From the NCBI RefSeq assembly GCF_055900595.2, contig NZ_CM148325.1: a stretch of 64,000 nt of DNA; one strand, 5' to 3'. The notes under the pieces were generated by a model. The model searched no databases, was not told the origin of the DNA, and was given only the letters and a program-made list of their open reading frames with translations. The translations under genes were made by a program, and so were the position numbers. Every line of letters starts with the position of its first letter. Within the stretch, counting starts at the first letter, position 1. Below, piece after piece: positions 1,456-44,634 of the stretch.

Positions 1456-3504
1456 ATGAACATGTTTTTTAGGCTTACCGCGTTAGCTGGCCTGCTTGCA
1501 ATAGCAGGCCAGACCTTCGCTGTAGAAGATATCACGCGTGCTGATCAAATTCCGGTATTAAAGGAAGAGACGCAGCATGCGACGGTGAGTGAGCGCGTAA
1601 CGTCGCGCTTCACCCGTTCTCATTATCGCCAGTTCGACCTCGATCAGGCATTTTCGGCTAAAATCTTTGACCGCTACCTGAATCTGCTCGATTACAGCCA
1701 CAACGTGCTGTTGGCAAGCGATGTTGAACAGTTCGCGAAAAAGAAAACCGAGTTAGGCGATGAACTTCGTTCAGGCAAACTCGACGTTTTCTACGATCTC
1801 TACAATCTGGCGCAAAAGCGCCGTTTTGAACGTTACCAGTACGCTTTGTCGGTACTGGAAAAGCCAATGGATTTTACCGGCAACGACACTTATAACCTTA
1901 ACCGCAGCAAAGCTCCATGGCCGAAAAACGAGGCTGAGTTGAACGCGCTGTGGGACAGTAAAGTCAAATTCGACGAGTTAAGTCTTAAGCTGACAGGAAA
2001 AGCGGATAAAGAAATTCGTGAAACCCTGACTCGCCGCTACAAATTTGCCATTCGTCGTCTGGCGCAAACCAACAGCGAAGATGTTTTCTCGCTGGCAATG
2101 ACGGCGTTTGCTCGTGAAATAGACCCGCATACCAACTATCTTTCCCCGCGTAATACCGAACAGTTCAACACTGAAATGAGTTTGTCGCTGGAAGGTATTG
2201 GCGCAGTGCTGCAAATGGATGATGACTACACCGTTATCAATTCGATGGTGGCAGGTGGCCCGGCAGCGAAGAGTAAAGCTATCAGCGTTGGTGACAAAAT
2301 TGTCGGTGTTGGTCAAACAGGCAAGCCGATGGTTGACGTGATTGGCTGGCGTCTTGATGACGTGGTTGCCTTAATTAAAGGGCCGAAGGGCAGTAAAGTT
2401 CGTCTGGAAATTTTACCTGCTGGTAAAGGGACCAAGACCCGTACTGTAACGTTGACCCGTGAACGTATTCGCCTCGAAGACCGTGCGGTTAAAATGTCGG
2501 TGAAGACCGTCGGTAAAGAGAAAGTTGGCGTGCTGGATATTCCTGGCTTCTATGTGGGGTTGACAGATGATGTCAAAGTACAACTGCAGAAACTGGAAAA
2601 ACAGAATGTCAGCAGTGTGATCATCGACCTGCGTAGCAATGGCGGTGGGGCGTTGACCGAGGCAGTATCGCTTTCAGGCCTGTTTATTCCTGCAGGTCCG
2701 ATTGTTCAGGTTCGTGATAACAACGGTAAAGTTCGTGAAGACAGCGATACCGACGGTCAGGTCTTCTATAAAGGCCCGCTGGTGGTGCTGGTTGACCGCT
2801 TTAGTGCTTCGGCTTCAGAAATCTTTGCTGCGGCAATGCAGGATTACGGTCGTGCGCTGGTTGTGGGTGAACCGACATTTGGTAAAGGCACTGTCCAGCA
2901 GTACCGTTCATTGAACCGTATTTACGATCAGATGTTACGTCCTGAATGGCCAGCTTTGGGTTCTGTTCAATACACGATCCAGAAATTCTATCGCGTTAAC
3001 GGCGGCAGTACGCAACGTAAGGGCGTAACGCCAGACATCATCATGCCGACAGGTAATGAAGAAACGGAAACGGGAGAGAAATTTGAAGATAACGCGCTGC
3101 CGTGGGATAGCATTGATGCTGCAACCTATGTGAAATCAGGCGATTTAACGGCCTTTGAACCGGAGTTGCTGAAGGCGCATAATGCGCGTATCGCGAAAGA
3201 TCCTGAGTTCCAGAACATCATGAAGGATATCGCGCGCTTCAACGCCATGAAGGACAAGCGCAATATCGTTTCTCTGAATTACGCGGTGCGTGAGAAAGAG
3301 AATAATGAAGATGATGCGACGCGTCTGGCGCGTTTGAACGAACGCTTTAAACGCGAAGGTAAACCGGAGTTGAAGAAGCTGGATGATCTACCGAAAGATT
3401 ACCAGGAACCGGATCCTTATCTGGATGAGACGGTGAATATCGCACTCGATTTGGCGAAGCTTGAAAAAGCCAGACCCGCGGAACAACCCGCTCCCGTCAA
3501 GTAA
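1456..3504 (+). CDS. prc: tail-specific periplasmic protease Prc (Tsp)
   Basis: Track ORF 1408..3504 trimmed to ATG at 1456 (MNMFFRLTALAGLLAIAG signal peptide); 682 aa as recalled for Prc. Confidence 0.95.
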   Translation: MNMFFRLTALAGLLAIAGQTFAVEDITRADQIPVLKEETQHATVSERVTSRFTRSHYRQFDLDQAFSAKIFDRYLNLLDYSHNVLLASDVEQFAKKKTELGDELRSGKLDVFYDLYNLAQKRRFERYQYALSVLEKPMDFTGNDTYNLNRSKAPWPKNEAELNALWDSKVKFDELSLKLTGKADKEIRETLTRRYKFAIRRLAQTNSEDVFSLAMTAFAREIDPHTNYLSPRNTEQFNTEMSLSLEGIGAVLQMDDDYTVINSMVAGGPAAKSKAISVGDKIVGVGQTGKPMVDVIGWRLDDVVALIKGPKGSKVRLEILPAGKGTKTRTVTLTRERIRLEDRAVKMSVKTVGKEKVGVLDIPGFYVGLTDDVKVQLQKLEKQNVSSVIIDLRSNGGGALTEAVSLSGLFIPAGPIVQVRDNNGKVREDSDTDGQVFYKGPLVVLVDRFSASASEIFAAAMQDYGRALVVGEPTFGKGTVQQYRSLNRIYDQMLRPEWPALGSVQYTIQKFYRVNGGSTQRKGVTPDIIMPTGNEETETGEKFEDNALPWDSIDAATYVKSGDLTAFEPELLKAHNARIAKDPEFQNIMKDIARFNAMKDKRNIVSLNYAVREKENNEDDATRLARLNERFKREGKPELKKLDDLPKDYQEPDPYLDETVNIALDLAKLEKARPAEQPAPVK

Positions 3505-9211: not shown

Positions 9212-10021
9212 ATGTCGTTTTCCTGTCCACTTTGCCATCAGCCTCTCTCGCGTGAAAAAAACAGCTATATCTGTCCCCAGCGACATCAGTTTGATATGGC
9301 GAAAGAAGGGTATGTCAACCTGTTGCCTGTTCAGCATAAACGATCTCGTGATCCGGGCGACAGCGCGGAAATGATGCAAGCACGACGCGCATTCTTAGAT
9401 GCCGGACATTATCAGCCGCTGCGTGATGCAATTGTTGCCCAACTGCGGGAACAGCTTGATGAAACGGCCACGGCGGTGCTGGATATCGGCTGTGGTGAAG
9501 GGTATTACACACACGCATTTGCCGATGCGTTGCCCGAAATCACCACGTTTGGTCTGGATGTCTCGAAGGTGGCGATCAAAGCTGCGGCAAAACGCTATCC
9601 GCAGGTCACTTTTTGTGTCGCTTCCAGTCACCGTTTGCCGTTTGCCGATGCCAGCATGAACGCCATTATTCGCATCTATGCGCCGTGTAAAGCAGAAGAA
9701 TTAGCGCGCGTAGTGAAGCCCGGCGGTTGGATCATTACAGCTACGCCGGGACCGCGACATTTGATGGAGCTGAAGGGGCTGATTTACAATGAAGTACATC
9801 TTCATGCACCTCATGCAGAACAACTGGAAGGTTTTACATTACAGCAGAGTGATGAGTTGTGTTATCCGATGCGTCTTCGCGGTGACGAAGCCGTCGCGTT
9901 ATTGCAGATGACGCCGTTTGCCTGGCGAGCGAAGCCAGAAGTCTGGCAAACGCTGGCAGCAAAAGAAGTGTTTGACTGCCAGACGGACTTTAATATTCAC
10001 CTCTGGCAGCGTTCTTATTAA
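9212..10021 (+). CDS. rlmA: 23S rRNA (guanine745-N1)-methyltransferase RlmA
   Basis: 269-aa [31 protein letters not shown]... (zinc-ribbon N-terminus, SAM-MTase fold motif DIGCGEGYY). Confidence 0.95.
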
Positions 10022-11525: not shown

Positions 11526-12386
11526 TTACAGTCCCAGCAGGCCGCAAGCATAACCCGCGATACCGATGACGAAGAAGCCAACGATGATCCACAGCGGATT
11601 AACTTTTTTGCGCAGCAGCCACATACAAGCAAAGGTCAGCAGTAGCGGTACCAGGCCCGGCATTAACTGGTCAAGAATAGTCTGGACAGTGGTAACGTGT
11701 TCTTTGCCCGTCTGGTCAGTAATGCGAGAGACAACCAGCGGGATGTTGACATGTGTCCACTTGTTAACCAATGCCCCCATGACAAACAGGCCGAGAATAG
11801 ACGCCCCTTCCGTCAGTTTTTGCAGGAAGCCGCCACCCATATCTTTAACGATATCGATACCTTTGGAGTAACCATACGCTACGCCGTAGTAACGGGTTGC
11901 CAGACGCACCAGGTTAAACAGGATGAAGAACAGAAGCGGACCTAACAGGCTGCCGCTCATCGCGATACCGGCACCCAGCGCTGCAAATACCGGACGTACG
12001 GTTCCCCAGAAGATCGGGTCGCCCACACCAGCCAGCGGGCCCATCAAACCAACTTTGATACCGTTGATAGCACCGTCATCGATCTCTGCGCCATTAGCAC
12101 GCTGTTCTTCCAGCGCCAGGGTTACGCCGAGAATCGGCGCAGCCACGAACGGCTGGGTGTTAAAGAACTCCAGGTGACGGCGAATAGCTTGTTTACGAGC
12201 TTCGTTGTTCTCAGGGTAGAGGCGACGAATTGCCGGTACCATAGAGAAGCAGAAACCCAGTGCCTGCATACGTTCGAAGTTCCATGAACCCTGGAAGAGG
12301 TTAGAACGCAGGAAGACGCCACGAATATCACTTTGAGTGAGTTTTTTCTCGGTGGTAGTTTGAGTTGTATCAACCATTTCGCTCAC
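11526..12386 (-). CDS. manZ: mannose PTS EIID component ManZ
   Basis: ORF translation ...VDTTQTTTEKKLTQSDIRGVFLRSNLFQGSWNFERMQALGF...; true start may be the Met 3 codons in (12377). Confidence 0.92.
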   Translation of the reverse strand: MSEMVDTTQTTTEKKLTQSDIRGVFLRSNLFQGSWNFERMQALGFCFSMVPAIRRLYPENNEARKQAIRRHLEFFNTQPFVAAPILGVTLALEEQRANGAEIDDGAINGIKVGLMGPLAGVGDPIFWGTVRPVFAALGAGIAMSGSLLGPLLFFILFNLVRLATRYYGVAYGYSKGIDIVKDMGGGFLQKLTEGASILGLFVMGALVNKWTHVNIPLVVSRITDQTGKEHVTTVQTILDQLMPGLVPLLLTFACMWLLRKKVNPLWIIVGFFVIGIAGYACGLLGL

Positions 12387-14686: not shown

Positions 14687-16243
14687 ATGGAATTCTTAAT
14701 GGACCCCTCAATTTGGGCGGGGCTACTCACGCTTGTTGTTCTCGAAATTGTGCTGGGTATCGATAACCTGGTCTTCATCGCCATTCTTGCTGACAAACTG
14801 CCGCCAAAACAACGCGATAAAGCGCGTTTGCTGGGATTATCACTGGCGCTGATTATGCGTCTGGGGCTGCTGTCGCTGATTTCATGGATGGTCACGCTGA
14901 CCAAACCGCTATTTACCGTCATGGATTTCTCCTTCTCCGGACGCGACCTGATTATGTTGTTCGGGGGGATATTCTTGCTGTTCAAAGCAACAACCGAACT
15001 GCATGAACGGCTGGAAAACCGCGATCATGATTCCGGCCACGGTAAAGGCTACGCCAGTTTCTGGGTGGTCGTCACACAGATCGTCATCCTTGACGCCGTC
15101 TTCTCGTTGGATGCGGTAATTACGGCAGTAGGGATGGTTAACCATCTACCGGTGATGATGGCGGCGGTGGTGATTGCGATGGCGGTCATGTTGCTGGCAT
15201 CGAAACCGCTGACGCGATTTGTTAATCAGCATCCAACGGTGGTGGTGCTCTGTCTGAGCTTCCTGTTAATGATTGGTCTGAGTCTGGTGGCAGAAGGTTT
15301 CGGTTTCCACATTCCGAAAGGTTACCTGTATGCCGCGATTGGCTTCTCGATCATCATCGAAGTGTTTAACCAGATTGCGCGTCGCAACTTTATTCGTCAC
15401 CAGTCGACTTTGCCGCTGCGTGCGCGTACTGCCGATGCCATCCTGCGTTTGATGGGGGGGAAACGTCAGGCCAATGTTCAGCACGATGCCGATAACCCGA
15501 TGCCTATCCCGGTACCGGAAGGTGCGTTTGCCGAAGAAGAACGTTACATGATTAACGGTGTATTGACGCTGGCGTCGCGTTCTCTGCGCGGGATCATGAC
15601 GCCGCGCGGTGAAATAAGCTGGGTTGACGCTAATCTCGGGGTCGATGAAATCCGTGAGCAGCTGCTCTCCTCACCGCACAGTCTGTTCCCGGTATGTCGC
15701 GGTGAACTGGATGAAATCATCGGTATCGTACGTGCTAAAGAACTGCTGGTGGCGCTCGAAGAAGGTGTTGATGTGGCGGCGATTGCTTCGGCGTCTCCGG
15801 CGATTATCGTCCCTGAAACCCTTGACCCGATCAACCTACTGGGCGTGCTGCGTCGTGCTCGCGGGAGCTTCGTTATCGTGACCAACGAGTTTGGTGTGGT
15901 ACAAGGCCTGGTCACGCCGCTGGATGTGCTGGAAGCCATTGCGGGTGAATTCCCGGACGCTGACGAAACGCCGGAAATCATTACCGATGGTGACGGCTGG
16001 CTGGTAAAAGGCGGTACAGATTTGCATGCCTTGCAGCAGGCGCTTGATGTTGAGCACCTTGCCGATGACGATGATATCGCGACGGTCGCGGGCCTCGTGA
16101 TCTCGGCAAATGGTCACATTCCCCGTGTGGGCGATGTGATTGATGTAGGGCCACTGCATATCACCATCATTGAAGCCAATGATTATCGTGTTGATCTGGT
16201 TCGCATTGTTAAAGAGCAACCGGCGCACGATGAAGATGAGTAA
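14687..16243 (+). CDS. yoaE: TerC-family membrane protein with CBS pair and CorC domains (YoaE)
   Basis: 518-aa [37 protein letters not shown]... Confidence 0.9.
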
Positions 16244-16246
16244 GCG

Positions 16247-17845
16247 TTAACGTAACGGCATAACGGGCGTGATATGTCCATTATGCCGGGCGGGCGGCGG
16301 TTGGCTGCCCGCCAGCCATTTGGGAAAATCACGTAGCGGCATCGGCTGTGCGTACAAATACCCTTGCAAAATATGCACGCCATGACGGCGCAAATACTTC
16401 GCCTGTTCTTGTGTTTCCACACCCTCCGCCACCAGTTCAATATTCAGTCTTTGCCCCAGTGCGATGATGATATCGGTCACCGTCGAGTTAACCGCGTCAG
16501 AACCTATAGCTGCGGTAAATGACTTATCAATTTTCAGCACGTCAGGACGTAATGTTTCAAGCCAGGAAAATGAACTGTTGCCGGTGCCGAAGTCATCAAT
16601 CGCCAGTTTGACGTTTTTACGATGCAGCTCGCGGGCAATCCGATAATCAACATCCAGTAAGGCATCGCGTTCGGTGATTTCGAGGATCAGTTGCTGAATC
16701 GGGTGAGCGCTAAACCAGTACTGATTGAGATCTTTTATCAGCACACCACGGCGAAAATGGCTGGGTGCGACGTTAATGCCAACATGAAACTGACTACTCA
16801 TTGGGAAAACATGCCGCTGACGGATGGTTTCTGCCATCACATAGCGGGTCAGTGGCACAATTAAATGATGTTCTTCCGCGATAGGAATAAACACATCCGG
16901 TGAAATCCAGCCCTGACGTGGATTGTTCCAGCGCAGCAAAATCTCTACACCAATACATTGCTGGCTGCGCGCATTAAGCAAAGGCTGGCAGAACAATTCG
17001 AACTCATGTTGCGCCAGGCCCAGATTGATTTCACGGGAAAAACTCATCCGGTAAGCGGTCGCCAGCCAGGCGATATAGCCCACAAGTAAACTTAGCAGCA
17101 CCGCCAGCGGTAATTGTGTTGGAAGATAGTGCCATGCCAGCGCCGTAGCCCCCGGACCATTAACGTTAATGGTAAAAGGAAAGCGTTGCGAAGAAACATG
17201 ATAGTTTTCATTGTCTTCAGGTTGCGGAAGGGAATCTACCAGCCCATTACCATAGAGCAAATGCCGATCGTCCACCGTCAGGCTGGCGCTACTGATTTGC
17301 GGCAGTTGTGGCTCAAGCAGCATTGCCGCCAGTAAGTCGATGTTGATCATCTCCATGACCCCAGCATTGCTACTGCCCGCTGCAGGCGTCCATTGAATCA
17401 AAACCGGACTGCCTTTAATCAGGGCATGGTCGGTCGTCAGTCGTAAAAGTGGTTGCGGTGCAGGAAGTTCAGCCAGAATGTCCACGACGGGCACATTGCG
17501 ATAACCAAAAATGCTGGAGCAATAAAGTGTGCCGTCTTGCACCAGGCCAATGGATCGCACAGTTTGGAGTTTTGCCGCCTGTTTACGTAATGGCAAATGG
17601 GCGACAGAGCAGGGCAGACCAATTAGCGGAAGTAAGACTTCACTACCTGCCTGTAGGGGAAGCAGTACTTTATCTAATTCCTCTACAGCGTGATTGGCGA
17701 ATTGTACTACCCGTTGTTGATTTAAGTTACGCTGTGAAATAAATCGCACGCTCAGGGTCGAAGCGAGCGTAACGAGTGCGCAAATCGTACAAACAATCAT
17801 TCGATTACGGCGATAGGTTTTAATGATCCGTTGTGCTTTTTGCAT
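16247..17845 (-). CDS. pdeD: c-di-GMP phosphodiesterase PdeD (YoaD), CSS sensor plus EAL domain
   Basis: Track ORF 16247..17875 trimmed to ATG at 17845 (MQKAQRIIKTYRRNRMIV...); EAL signature ELVAEGVE present. Confidence 0.85.
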   Translation of the reverse strand: MQKAQRIIKTYRRNRMIVCTICALVTLASTLSVRFISQRNLNQQRVVQFANHAVEELDKVLLPLQAGSEVLLPLIGLPCSVAHLPLRKQAAKLQTVRSIGLVQDGTLYCSSIFGYRNVPVVDILAELPAPQPLLRLTTDHALIKGSPVLIQWTPAAGSSNAGVMEMINIDLLAAMLLEPQLPQISSASLTVDDRHLLYGNGLVDSLPQPEDNENYHVSSQRFPFTINVNGPGATALAWHYLPTQLPLAVLLSLLVGYIAWLATAYRMSFSREINLGLAQHEFELFCQPLLNARSQQCIGVEILLRWNNPRQGWISPDVFIPIAEEHHLIVPLTRYVMAETIRQRHVFPMSSQFHVGINVAPSHFRRGVLIKDLNQYWFSAHPIQQLILEITERDALLDVDYRIARELHRKNVKLAIDDFGTGNSSFSWLETLRPDVLKIDKSFTAAIGSDAVNSTVTDIIIALGQRLNIELVAEGVETQEQAKYLRRHGVHILQGYLYAQPMPLRDFPKWLAGSQPPPARHNGHITPVMPLR

Positions 17846-22904: not shown

Positions 22905-23035
22905 CATTTTGTCCTCATTATCCTTCCATTTTCGTGCTGCAAAGACTGCCACAATGTGAGGTCGCCGTCACCACTTCAACTGGCGAAAGCGCCCTCATCC
23001 TGACATAATCCCTGTTCAAATCAACAGGGGGTAGT

Positions 23036-40918: not shown

Positions 40919-41740
40919 ATGATGCACAGGTTGAATCTCAATGGTTATGAACCCGACCGACACCATGAAGCCGCGGTCGCATTTTGTATTCACGCCGGAA
41001 CGGATGAGTTAACCAGTCCTGTACATCAGCACCGCAAAGGGCAGCTGATACTGGCGCTACATGGTGCAATTACCTGTACGGTGGAAAATGCTTTGTGGAT
41101 GGTGCCGCCACAATATGCGGTTTGGATACCGGGCGGGGTGAAACATAGCAATCAAGTGACAGCTAACGCTGAACTCTGTTTTCTGTTTATAGAGCCCAGC
41201 GCAGTGACAATGCCGACAACATGTTGCACATTGAAAATATCGCCCTTATGCCGGGAATTAATTTTAACCCTGGCAAACAGGACGACGACTCAGCGTGCTG
41301 AGCCGATGACCCGCAGATTAATTCAGGTCCTGTTTGATGAACTCCCTCAGCAGCCACAACAACAGCTGCACCTGCCCGTTTCTTCTCATCCTAAAATCCG
41401 CACGATGGTGGAGATGATGGCGAAAGAGCCTGTCGAGTGGGGGGCATTGGGGCAATGGGCTCGCTTTTTTGCGATGAGTGAACGCAATCTTGCCCGACTG
41501 ATAGTGAAAGAGACGGGGTTGAGTTTTCGCCAGTGGCGTCAGCAGTTACAGCTGATTATGGCGCTTCAGGGATTAGTGAAAGGCGATACTGTACAGAAAG
41601 TTGCTCATACGCTGGGGTATGATTCAACAACGGCCTTTATTACTATGTTTAAGAAAGGCCTGGGGCAAACGCCAGGCCGATATATTGCGGGATTAACTAC
41701 TGTTTCCCCACAATCAGCGAAACCAGACCCGCGGCAATAA
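40919..41740 (+). CDS. nimR: AraC-family regulator NimR (YeaM)
   Basis: 273-aa ORF, cupin-like N-terminus and AraC HTH C-terminus; divergent from nimT. Confidence 0.88.
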
Positions 41741-42143
41741 GCGGGCCAACCGGTACGCCGCGAAACAGCGCCACGCCCAAAACAGTGCCCACCAGCAGCC
41801 CGGCGACCAGTTGCGGCTGGCTGCCCATTAACGTCACGCCGCGCCCACCTAGCCAGGAGACAATAACGCCTACTGCAATTGCCACCAGCGATTTCCAGTT
41901 CAGAAACGAGTGAATCAGGGTTGAGGGCGGTAGCGTCCCGCTGGCGATGGGGGCCATAACGCCAATCGTCAGAATGATTATCCCGATACTTAGCCCCTGT
42001 TTTTCAATCCACGGGAAAAAGGTGCTTAACGGTGTGACGCGGACAATGATTAACACCAGAATTGAAACGGCGACAGTGGTGTTATGACTGATAAAGCCCA
42101 GCGCAGCTAACCCGAGCAGGATCAGCAAAGTGACATCAAACAT
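41697..42143 (-). CDS. yeaL: DUF441 membrane protein YeaL
   Basis: 148-aa [39 protein letters not shown]... Confidence 0.85.
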
Positions 42144-42312
42144 CGTGGTTTCCTTGCCAAAAAATAATAAGCCTGCTTACTTTACGCTTGCTGCAGGAAG
42201 GAAGTAGAAAATCTTTACGTTTTTTGCATAAAAAATCAGGCGAACTGTCATCAAACTGCCATTTGTGCACGCTAACAATAACGTGAAAACAGCTATCTCC
42301 CCGGGGCATACT

Positions 42313-42417
42313 ATGAACGATCAAATGTTTGTCGAGACACTGATTATCACGTCATCGTTTTTTGCCATTGCTGTTGTGCTGGTTTTGTCCGTTCTGCTTA
42401 TTGAACGGACAGGCTAG
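42313..42417 (+). CDS. yoaI: small membrane protein YoaI (34 aa)
   Basis: Translated by hand: [34 protein letters not shown]; absent from track (under 60 aa). Confidence 0.75.
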
Positions 42418-42921
42418 TTACGCAGTGCGGCGGAAATTGACCAGTTCTGGTTGCGCAATGCGCAAATAATCCGCGGTTTTCAAAATAACGGATTTATCCA
42501 GCATGCCTGCATTGAAGGCGATTTCATCAAATCGTTCGAAGAGTAGGGGGTCGGCAACCAGTTTGAGTTTTGGATGGAAGCTGAAAGGGGGGATCGCGCC
42601 GAAGACACAGCCTGTGAGTTCATCGACTTCCGCCGGGCTGGCCAACGAAGCGCGTAATCCGCCTATATGGATGGCAAGTTGGCTCAGATCGGCCTGTTGA
42701 TCGGCAGCGAGGATCGCCAGAACATGTTGATTTACGCCATTGCCTTTGACTTTACATACCAGTGCCTTAGCCCCCTGGCCTAAAGCGGTGCCACGAATTT
42801 CTGACACCGCTTCGCATTTACCTACCGCCTCATGGGTAACGACGCGGAAGTCAGCACCTTCTTGTGATAATAAAGCGATTAACCGCTGATGCGTCACGCT
42901 TCCTTTAGCCATTTCAGTCAT
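42418..42921 (-). CDS. yeaK: YbaK/ProX-family aminoacyl-tRNA deacylase YeaK
   Basis: 167-aa ORF MTEMAKGSVTHQRLIALLSQEGADFRVVTHEAVGKCEAVSEIRG... Confidence 0.88.
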   Translation of the reverse strand: MTEMAKGSVTHQRLIALLSQEGADFRVVTHEAVGKCEAVSEIRGTALGQGAKALVCKVKGNGVNQHVLAILAADQQADLSQLAIHIGGLRASLASPAEVDELTGCVFGAIPPFSFHPKLKLVADPLLFERFDEIAFNAGMLDKSVILKTADYLRIAQPELVNFRRTA

Positions 42922-42963: not shown

Positions 42964-44454
42964 TCATGAACGGCTGTTTTTGTTCTGCTTATTGACATAT
43001 AAACGCTCATCGGAAGCTTTATACGCATCATGTAACGTATCGTTTTCTTTCATCGCATAAATACCGGAAGAGAAGCCGATCTCTTTCTGCGGCGCGATAT
43101 GTTGCAGACGTTTTTCGATACGTTCAGGCAGTTGTGCTGCAATTTGCGGCGTCGAATCGACAAGAATGATGCAGAATTCATCGCCACCGAGTCGGATGGC
43201 ATAATCACTTTTACGAATCGACTGTTTAATCGCCTGAGCTAATAACGTAATCGCTAAATCTCCTTCCTGATGACCGAGCGTGTCATTTATTTGCTTTAAC
43301 TTGTCCATGTCAATTGCAATAAACATCACCGAAGAACCAGATTGCACCAGTTTTTGCAACCGCTGCTCCAGTTCAGGGGTTAATATTTTGCGATTATACA
43401 GTCCGGTCATCGCATCACTAATATTTTCTCGCGACACATTTTGGTATAAACGGAAGTGCATCCGCACCATATTCAGCAAAATTAACGCCGTCAAAATCCA
43501 GAACAGAACGCTTTTCCACGAAGATGTGATAAAGTAAAGAATATCAATGGATAACGATACACGAATGCCGCCCGGTAAGTCATGGACGTAACTGACATAC
43601 TGGAACAGATTATCTTCGCTCTGGTTGATGATAATGTCGCGCCCAGAATCTGTATCGGTTAGCGTGACATTGAGAAAACGCCAGAGGAGAGGGCGGTCAT
43701 GCGTGTAAAAGATATTCCGCAGATTGTTTTTGTTAATATCCAGCAGCACAATTCCTTTTAGCTGCCCTGCAACATACACTGGCGTCAGCAAACTCATCAC
43801 GTTCTGTTTAGTACGCTGATCCTGGTAAATGCTCGATAATACGGTGCGACCGGTAAAAACTTTTTCAATATCTTTGCGATCGATGCCAATGCTTCCTGAC
43901 TGCAGGAAGGACCAGTTATTCATCGCAAAGTACTCAACATTAACCGGCTCATAAAAATAGACATAGAGGTCATTGAGATCGAGATAATAGTGAAATTTCT
44001 CTTCGGCCATTCCAAGACCTGAACCATAATCATCCTGGTGGCGGTTGCCTTCCACTGCCTGATCAAAAGCGGGTAATAGTGCTGCAGCTTCCACAATTGT
44101 GTCGCATTCAGTGGATGCGGTTTGTAGTGTACCGTGTAAGCCCGTGTACTTATGGGCAGTCAGGTTTAAGCCATGGGTATTATTGGCAGACTCAAAAGCC
44201 TCGCAGATGGTACGCCGCTGTTCTGGCGACACTTCCGACTGCTCAGCAGCGAGAGCGCGCATCACATGCGCGGCAATACTCTGATTTTGATACTTGTCAT
44301 AAAGAAAGGAGGAATCTGCTCTCTGCACGATATAGCGCAGATAGGCACTCATTGCTCTGTCGCTGGCGACAAGTTCAAAAATAAGGAAGGAAGATGTCAG
44401 CACAATGACACTTGCGGCGATAAAATGCCGGAGCATTCTATGGTGCAATTTCAT
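42964..44454 (-). CDS. dgcJ: diguanylate cyclase DgcJ (YeaJ), membrane sensor plus GGDEF
   Basis: Track ORF 42964..44634 trimmed to ATG at 44454 (MKLHHRMLRHFIAASVIVLTSSF...); GGDEF motif RLGGDEF; 496 aa. Confidence 0.88.
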   Translation of the reverse strand: MKLHHRMLRHFIAASVIVLTSSFLIFELVASDRAMSAYLRYIVQRADSSFLYDKYQNQSIAAHVMRALAAEQSEVSPEQRRTICEAFESANNTHGLNLTAHKYTGLHGTLQTASTECDTIVEAAALLPAFDQAVEGNRHQDDYGSGLGMAEEKFHYYLDLNDLYVYFYEPVNVEYFAMNNWSFLQSGSIGIDRKDIEKVFTGRTVLSSIYQDQRTKQNVMSLLTPVYVAGQLKGIVLLDINKNNLRNIFYTHDRPLLWRFLNVTLTDTDSGRDIIINQSEDNLFQYVSYVHDLPGGIRVSLSIDILYFITSSWKSVLFWILTALILLNMVRMHFRLYQNVSRENISDAMTGLYNRKILTPELEQRLQKLVQSGSSVMFIAIDMDKLKQINDTLGHQEGDLAITLLAQAIKQSIRKSDYAIRLGGDEFCIILVDSTPQIAAQLPERIEKRLQHIAPQKEIGFSSGIYAMKENDTLHDAYKASDERLYVNKQNKNSRS

Positions 44455-44634
44455 GATAAATGGCACTCCTTCGGTTAGTGAAACGAGAAAACCAGATAAA
44501 GTTCGATTGCGGCCTGGCACAGGGGCGCTAATTATACTCATCTCTGCGCCGCTGGGGAGGGGAAATTTAGGGGTAATAGTAATAAATTGTATGCAAAAGC
44601 CACGCAAAAAGCATGGCTCTGAATATTTTTGCAC

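Follow-up and report, generated by a model that had tools for sequence, protein, structure and literature searches.

The small gene yoaI and the convergent gene yeaK meet at their stop codons with no base between them, and we consider it probable that this known Escherichia coli pair forms a weak 'excludon', in which each transcript ends inside the other gene and yeaK expression is modestly lowered. Public annotation and the literature already cover both genes, the abutment and the overlap of their transcription. Our analysis adds the placement of the mapped yeaK 3′ end and a hairpin inside yoaI codons 25–33, the fall of yeaK RNA with yoaI induction, the tight packing found in every genus in which yoaI adjoins yeaK, and the consequence that yoaI deletion or tagging alleles alter the yeaK 3′ end.

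The stretch analysed, here called the window, comprises 64,000 nt of contig NZ_CM148325.1 (RefSeq assembly GCF_055900595.2). In the sequence, yoaI occupies 42313..42417 on the plus strand, with an ATG start at 42313–42315 and 34 codons followed by a TAG stop at 42415–42417. On the minus strand, yeaK spans 42418..42921 (167 aa; ORF list and RefSeq), and its TAA stop takes up 42418–42420. The junction at 42415..42420 therefore consists of the two abutting stops, TAG/TTA, with 0 intergenic bases, and reads ...GAA CGG ACA GGC TAG|TTA CGC... on the plus strand. Among eight aligned Escherichia sequences, TA[G/A]TTA is invariant at the junction and free of indels. The DUF441 membrane protein gene yeaL (41697..42143, minus strand; ORF list and RefSeq) runs in the same direction as yeaK, so that yoaI and its promoter, on the other strand, are flanked by two genes of like orientation. 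In a near-identical strain that differs from the window by about one mismatch per 4 kb, the RefSeq gene order is nimR, yeaL, yoaI, yeaK, dgcJ, with the same abutment of yoaI (2214–2318, plus) and yeaK (2319–2822, minus). The genes also abut in K-12 MG1655, where the locus is inverted (yeaK 1873574..1874077, plus; yoaI 1874078..1874182, minus). The zero spacing reported in the first-pass annotation is thus borne out by the sequence, RefSeq and K-12 alike. The gap-free alignment to K-12 allows published positions to be transferred as window = 42313 + (1874182 − K-12 coordinate). All experimental data cited here come from K-12, to which the window is near-identical and gap-free in this region. 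Of 5426 complete E. coli genomes, 5411 matched a 1.5-kb query taken around the site.

Both genes have clear identities. YoaI matches the NCBIfam equivalog NF041475, 'small membrane protein YoaI', at 79.8 bits (cut-off 45) and over its full length, residues 1–34 aligning to model positions 1–34. Its 34-aa sequence is identical to that of E. coli YoaI (b1788; WP_000999630.1), with no protein-level difference, and the compared part of yoaI differs between the window and K-12 by synonymous changes only. Ser26, Val27 and Glu31, reported as invariant in 57 YoaI orthologues (bioRxiv 10.1101/2024.09.13.612970), are all present in the window (...VLS26V27LLIE31RTG). The S-V...L-E pattern is retained in almost all of the 40 orthologues that we recovered, the exceptions being SI in locus L081 and D31 in locus L052. 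Within Escherichia, the yoaI frame has a pS of 0.30 and a pN of 0.041, giving a pN/pS of 0.14, lower than that of any other of the six frames across this DNA; against more distant genera the ratio is 0.17–0.59. We conclude that yoaI is a real gene under purifying selection. The protein has been detected; it resides in the inner membrane, binds the sensor kinase EnvZ via Glu31 and stimulates EnvZ–OmpR signalling (bioRxiv 10.1101/2024.09.13.612970). The convergent gene, named as yeaK from the start, encodes a PF04073 (YbaK/ProX-type editing, tRNA_edit) domain at residues 30–154, scoring 92.9 bits against a gathering threshold of 25.5, and carries the RefSeq product name mischarged aminoacyl-tRNA deacylase; it is YbaK-like.

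The 34-codon ORF had been named yoaI on first reading, with its conservation proposed as a check. That name is upheld by the NF041475 match, the pN/pS of 0.14 and the retention of the ORF in 40 of 80 enterobacterial species loci, and published data show both genes to be expressed. The mechanical ORF list extends this small plus-strand ORF to a GTG at 42265 (50 aa) and also calls a 62-aa ORF with a TTG start on the minus strand (42136..42324), which we regard as spurious. The first-pass annotation rejected this antisense ORF, rightly, and misplaced it: it lies beside yoaI, mainly over the yeaL–yoaI intergenic region and the yoaI promoter, and overlaps yoaI by 12 nt only and yeaL by 8 nt. That the 62-aa frame is the real gene and the 34-codon ORF a chance one can practically be discounted, its greater length being the sole point in its favour. 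It finds no family in NCBIfam or Pfam searches, is interrupted by stops or a frameshift in four of six other Escherichia species (E. albertii, E1V33, E. whittamii and SCPM) and sits over an experimentally mapped PhoB site, whereas yoaI belongs to a curated family, is under purifying selection and has had its protein detected. The automatic call had thus chosen the longer, spurious ORF over a real 34-codon gene, and tests of conservation and selection settle the choice.

Transcription of yoaI is under the control of PhoB. A Pho box, TGTCATCAAACTGCCATT, is located at 42246..42263 on the plus strand, starting 67 nt upstream of the yoaI ATG, and matches exactly the motif beneath the PhoB ChIP-seq peak in K-12 (PMC10294691 Table 1). 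The pattern TGTCAT-N5-TGYCAT recurs across genera, 60–75 nt ahead of yoaI in almost all loci with an orthologue. The usual distance from a Pho box to a −10 element served to place a putative −10 for yoaI, TAACAAT, at 42273..42279 on the plus strand, 10 nt downstream of the box. This element had no match in a consensus promoter scan, which is unsurprising for a promoter that depends on an activator and lacks a −35 element. In K-12, the activation of yoaI by PhoB is evident from RNA-seq (12,266 in wild type versus 28 in ΔphoB) and is backed by PhoB ChIP-seq and by RNA polymerase and sigma-70 occupancy (PMC10294691). These PhoB activity data were obtained in K-12, a strain other than that of the window.

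We then considered where the two transcripts end. Scanned on both strands, the junction and its surroundings contain no consensus terminator, and an Rfam search gave nothing there, its only match being a sub-threshold JUMPstart inside yeaL. A bidirectional intrinsic terminator at the junction was considered and rejected, as flanking A- and U-tracts are absent and the scan was negative. The earlier statement that the junction leaves no room for terminators accordingly stands, with one refinement: the 3′-end signals are displaced into the partner gene. Because no terminator fits between the genes, each transcript would end inside the other gene. For yeaK, the primary 3′ terminus in K-12 has been mapped to 1874113 or 1874114, depending on the table (PMC10687069 Supplementary Data 2–4); it appears in three supplementary tables, two of them lists of termini and the third a table of 3′ UTRs derived from these. 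Transferred to the window, the mature yeaK mRNA ends at 42381..42382 on the minus strand, giving a 3′ UTR that extends 36–37 nt past the stop and is wholly antisense to yoaI codons 23–34. Adams et al. 2021 list no curated 3′ end at the yoaI/yeaK locus in their Term-seq tables.

Just ahead of this end lies a hairpin. The sequence upstream of the K-12 terminus is given as GCCGCACUGCGUAACUAGCCGGUCCGUUCGAUAAGAAGAACGGACAAAACCA, with an 8-bp hairpin of −15.4 kcal/mol (PMC10687069). In the window, an inverted-repeat search identified a perfect 9-bp hairpin with arms TGTCCGTTC and GAACGGACA and an 8-nt loop (42386..42411, minus strand; fold −13.4 kcal/mol). It is positioned inside yoaI codons 25–33, 7–32 nt after the yeaK stop on the yeaK-sense RNA, and its arms correspond to the yoaI codons for Ser26-Val27 and Glu31-Arg32-Thr33. 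Three of the synonymous changes between the window and K-12 fall in or beside it, at yoaI codons 28, 30 and 33. The fold of the whole region in the yeaK sense is unremarkable (z −1.0). A canonical intrinsic terminator for yeaK is absent from the window and from all Escherichia, in which the 8-nt tail of the hairpin holds at most one U.

Further downstream, a Rho-dependent termination region for yeaK-sense RNA has been mapped independently in K-12 by Adams et al. with its peak at 1874225, equivalent to about window 42270 and an approximate region of 42230..42310 on the minus strand. Reads upstream and downstream of the site were 73/36 without bicyclomycin (BCM) and 120/166 with it, for a weak Rho score of 2.8 (p 1e-5), at a coarse resolution set by a method that compares 800-nt windows (PMC7815308 Supplementary file 2). 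In the reading that we prefer, RNA polymerase leaving yeaK would cross yoaI in antisense and be halted by Rho near the yoaI promoter, after which a 3′-exonuclease would trim the RNA back to the hairpin and leave the end 36–37 nt past the stop. The trimming step is suggested by the usual behaviour of Rho-terminated transcripts (PMC6061677).

Alternatively, the hairpin could itself be the site of yeaK termination, either as a U-tract-less intrinsic terminator or by pausing polymerase with the aid of collisions. The mapped end, 4–5 nt beyond the stem, would suit such a site, a nascent stem–loop has been reported to position head-on polymerase collisions at convergent genes (10.1101/2022.10.23.513370), and Enterobacter has a true hairpin and U-tract at the equivalent place. 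We nonetheless find this unlikely, given that the yeaK-sense tail after the stem, AAAACCAG, contains no U, and the T run, on the plus strand, lies upstream of the stem (GGTTTT-hairpin-GGCTAG). Moreover, bicyclomycin-sensitive read-through downstream indicates that polymerase passes the hairpin, and since yoaI is off in the media used for mapping, collisions cannot be required. The same read-through, which bicyclomycin raises towards yeaL, could instead be taken as a sign of a non-contiguous operon, with yeaK and yeaL co-transcribed across the antisense yoaI; the two genes are co-directional and mostly 60–190 nt apart where yoaI is undetected. The primary yeaK 3′ end at +36, the Rho region before yeaL, a level of yeaL RNA about 10-fold below that of yeaK (54/17 versus 389/413) and the absence of the pair from the three such operons listed by ExcludonFinder (PMC12288877) all make this arrangement improbable.

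On the other strand, the yoaI transcript probably runs on well into antisense yeaK. The consensus scan found no intrinsic terminator for yoaI near the junction, and the hairpin at 42386–42411 cannot serve as one, being upstream of the yoaI stop and lacking a U-tract. Past the yoaI stop, G-rich RNA continues for about 290 nt, and a C-rich, G-poor stretch fit for Rho loading first appears 300–416 nt downstream of the stop (window 42717–42833). The yoaI-sense strand folds better than shuffled sequences (z −2.8), with no terminator-like element. A candidate yoaI terminator at 42469–42493, a weak hairpin followed by UUAUCC, was considered and left as unsupported. The published 3′-end maps derive from phosphate-replete media, in which yoaI is off. 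With transcript ends lying in the partner genes, the two mRNAs would share a complementary stretch of at least 36 nt, and the polymerases would run into each other head-on.

We also asked how far the hairpin itself is conserved. All nine pairs form only in E. coli and the MOD1 clade; eight form in E. albertii, and the hairpin is weakened in the cryptic Escherichia clades and absent in other genera. When eight Escherichia sequences are aligned in the yeaK sense, pairing holds in 80.6% of cells, compensatory changes are absent and five of the nine pairs vary by disruption only. Synonymous changes in the stem (8 of 36 opportunities, against a pooled pS of 0.30) are near background, and a hairpin of equal or greater stability occurs in 35% of 78-nt windows drawn at random from these loci. 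A conserved RNA structure was consequently rejected: the hairpin decays across clades, shows no covariation and has a synonymous rate close to background. A general excess of stable hairpins after the yeaK stop was likewise rejected on comparison of medians (−10.9 kcal/mol with adjacent yoaI and −9.5 without, versus −11.3 in random windows). What lends the hairpin weight is the mapped 3′ end; neither comparison nor statistics does so. Where the spacer is 20–21 nt, in Enterobacter-type loci such as L031, L035, L051 and L078, yeaK has a canonical terminator whose stem spans the spacer together with the yoaI stop and Gly34 codons, and whose U-tract is the complement of yoaI codons 31–33 (Glu31-Arg32-Lys33). 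Such terminators occur in 4 of 39 loci versus 9 of 405 control windows, all four being from one related genus group.

Tight packing extends beyond Escherichia. Among 80 species-level enterobacterial loci encoding a YeaK relative, a yoaI homologue is convergent with and adjacent to yeaK in 38 and lies 2.2 kb away in 2; yoaI was undetected in the other 40 (Citrobacter freundii group, Klebsiella, Raoultella, Kluyvera, Atlantibacter, Pseudocitrobacter and others). The yeaK–yeaL gap measures 249–328 nt in most loci with adjacent yoaI and mostly 60–190 nt where yoaI is undetected, a difference which implies that yoaI and its promoter act as a unit of ~170–200 nt that a locus either has in full or lacks. 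The stop-to-stop spacing stays between −4 and +30 nt in all 38 loci with adjoining genes, never leaving room for a free-standing terminator. All seven Escherichia species loci and Cedecea davisae have a spacing of 0; a value of −4, with the stops sharing two bases (TTAG or CTAG), is seen in Salmonella enterica subspecies arizonae and diarizonae, Trabulsiella and Yokenella, and also in one Pluralibacter locus and Enterobacter sp. BIGb0383; in the remaining genera with adjacent yoaI it is +1 to +30.

This distribution also feeds the most serious rival reading, namely that the abutment is neutral packing, a by-product of a compact genome and of the chance position of the yoaI unit, in which the transcripts overlap with no meaningful effect on expression. 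The 11 convergent pairs in the 64-kb window are spaced at −44, −4, 0, 3, 21, 50, 53, 58, 116, 119 and 160 nt, the −44 nt pair being nimR/yeaL, the next pair along from yoaI/yeaK. With 4 of the 11 at most 3 nt apart, zero spacing is not very unusual in this part of the genome. The drift in spacing between genera, the lack of yoaI at the site in about half of the genera, where yeaK and yeaL are close, and the absence of a selection signal in the hairpin fit the neutral reading equally, and we regard it as quite possible.

Expression data bear on the choice. In directional RNA-seq of wild-type and ΔphoB K-12 cells (two replicates each; PMC10294691), yoaI RNA stood at 11,755 / 12,778 in wild type versus 32 / 23 in ΔphoB, an induction of ~450-fold. 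Over the same comparison, yeaK RNA was ~1.7-fold lower in wild type (389 / 413 versus 709 / 655; log2 −0.8, q 0.0115). Neither dgcJ (yeaJ), immediately upstream of yeaK (210 / 176 versus 158 / 143; log2 +0.4), nor yeaL (54 / 17 versus 58 / 76) changed significantly (PMC10294691). Under neutral packing, the 1.7-fold change in yeaK would be indirect, and many genes do shift similarly in the ΔphoB table. Against this, the change is in the direction predicted by interference and is specific to yeaK, sparing the upstream dgcJ, and yoaI RNA is ~30 times as abundant as yeaK RNA, so that head-on traffic should be heavy. The fall in yeaK RNA on yoaI induction, seen in two replicates, is suggestive: it fits head-on interference or duplex-triggered decay without proving either. 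Wild type and ΔphoB differ in their whole phosphate response, through which yeaK could also change by indirect physiology. In the weak excludon that we favour, phosphate starvation would raise yoaI ~450-fold and probably lower yeaK mRNA modestly, by ~1.7-fold.

A stronger claim, that the overlap is a working regulatory link running either from PhoB and yoaI to yeaK or from yeaK RNA to YoaI abundance, appears improbable to us. Were the first direction true, PhoB-driven yoaI transcription would turn down a tRNA-proofreading enzyme specifically in phosphate starvation, the lowering being brought about by head-on transcription into yeaK and by pairing with the yeaK 3′ end. If the overlap is such a link, codons 25–33 of yoaI would be doubly used, for the conserved Ser-Val...Glu-Arg residues and for the yeaK 3′-end hairpin. 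The second direction would touch on the finding that low magnesium raises YoaI abundance post-transcriptionally, as seen with a chromosomal YoaI-SPA fusion (bioRxiv 10.1101/2024.09.13.612970). Here the yeaK 3′ UTR and read-through RNA, with perfect complementarity to the whole yoaI mRNA, would set the low-magnesium control of YoaI. In SPA tagging, the yoaI coding sequence becomes separated from yeaK by the tag and a resistance cassette, which argues against yeaK RNA setting the magnesium-dependent control.

The overlap has a practical consequence. Alleles with yoaI deleted or tagged, among them published ones that lack the entire ORF and its stop, necessarily alter the yeaK 3′ end, so phenotypes of yoaI mutants should be complemented in trans and yeaK expression should be checked. 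With its ~450-fold induction, which one mutation in the Pho box would abolish, the pair is also suited to testing whether a tiny gene, when strongly and conditionally transcribed, weakens the expression of the gene convergent to it.

Features of the locus recur in several known systems. The yeaK end resembles those of Rho-terminated mRNAs that are trimmed to a 3′ stem–loop (Dar and Sorek 2018, PMC6061677), with a hairpin lacking a U-tract just before the end and a bicyclomycin-sensitive region further downstream; it differs in that the hairpin sits in the coding sequence of an opposite-strand gene, and trimming here is inferred. Bidirectional intrinsic terminators (10.1101/2022.10.23.513370) similarly place a single hairpin at the boundary of two convergent genes, but the yoaI/yeaK hairpin lacks their A-tract/hairpin/U-tract symmetry and has its T run on the wrong side of the stem. 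The closest parallel is with convergent excludons. Of the 165 convergent excludons that ExcludonFinder detected in half or more of 58 MG1655 transcriptomes, one is yeaK–yoaI, and three other pairs from the window, yeaL–nimR, yeaO–yoaF and pdeD–yoaE, are listed too (PMC12288877). Compared with that class, the apparent effect at yoaI/yeaK is small (1.7-fold) and the overlap is mapped from the yeaK side. As in other convergent excludons, the genes converge at the short spacing typical of the class, and the transcripts overlap, with the yeaK 3′ end 36–37 nt inside yoaI in the K-12 data. The opposite movement of the yoaI and yeaK RNAs on yoaI induction would fit the mutually exclusive expression of the class.

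The yeaK gene of Enterobacter-type loci carries a canonical intrinsic terminator (positions 3009–3036 of one such comparison locus, L051, and similar in L031, L035, and L078) that is built partly from yoaI itself. The terminator stem comprises a 20-nt spacer together with the yoaI stop codon and its Gly34 codon, while the U-tract corresponds, in reverse complement, to yoaI codons Glu31-Arg32-Lys33 (GAAAGAAAA). Published ΔyoaI alleles remove the entire small ORF, including its stop codon (window 42313–42417), and thereby also the mapped yeaK 3′ UTR and its hairpin. Because these elements are lost, yeaK may be affected in cis in the published ΔyoaI strains.

An insertion of approximately 2.2 kb separates yeaK from yoaI in Huaxiibacter chinensis (L029, 3001–5257) and in one Enterobacter asburiae genome (L030, 3001–5236), which breaks the tail-to-tail arrangement of the two genes. 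Enterobacterial copies of both genes, with 80% amino-acid identity for yeaK, also occur on a contig labelled Chryseobacterium sp. 18061 (L034, CACSKA010000011.1), probably through contamination or mislabelling of the assembly.

Elsewhere along the stretch, strain E200086 is near-identical to the window apart from a 9.3-kb insert (L083, 13686–23021) that is absent from the window and lies between yoaB and yoaA, at approximately 23022–23027. At the insert junction, the two blocks of the alignment share 6 nt. The inserted genes encode a Zot-domain protein, a GspD-like secretin, a replication endonuclease, and an IS110 transposase, a content that gives the element the appearance of a filamentous prophage.

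Within yeaL, an Rfam JUMPstart match (window 41908–41937, plus strand) scores below threshold, at 21.5 bits (E 0.09) versus a gathering score of 35, and is most likely due to chance. On the minus strand, the mechanically called dgcJ ORF begins at an upstream GTG and spans 556 aa (window 42964–44634), compared with 496 aa for the protein of the annotated CDS (42964–44454); the upstream extension is probably untranslated.

Tight convergent spacing recurs across the 64-kb window, where 4 of the 11 convergent pairs are separated by 3 nt or less. The convergent genes rlmA and mntP have 4 nt in common (window 10018–10021), and 3 nt lie between the convergent yoaE and pdeD (window 16243–16247). The neighbouring convergent pair, nimR (plus strand) and yeaL (minus strand), is packed more closely than yoaI and yeaK, with a 44-nt overlap of the 3′ ends (window 41697–41740), and is also among the excludons, convergent neighbours with overlapping transcripts, listed for MG1655 (PMC12288877).
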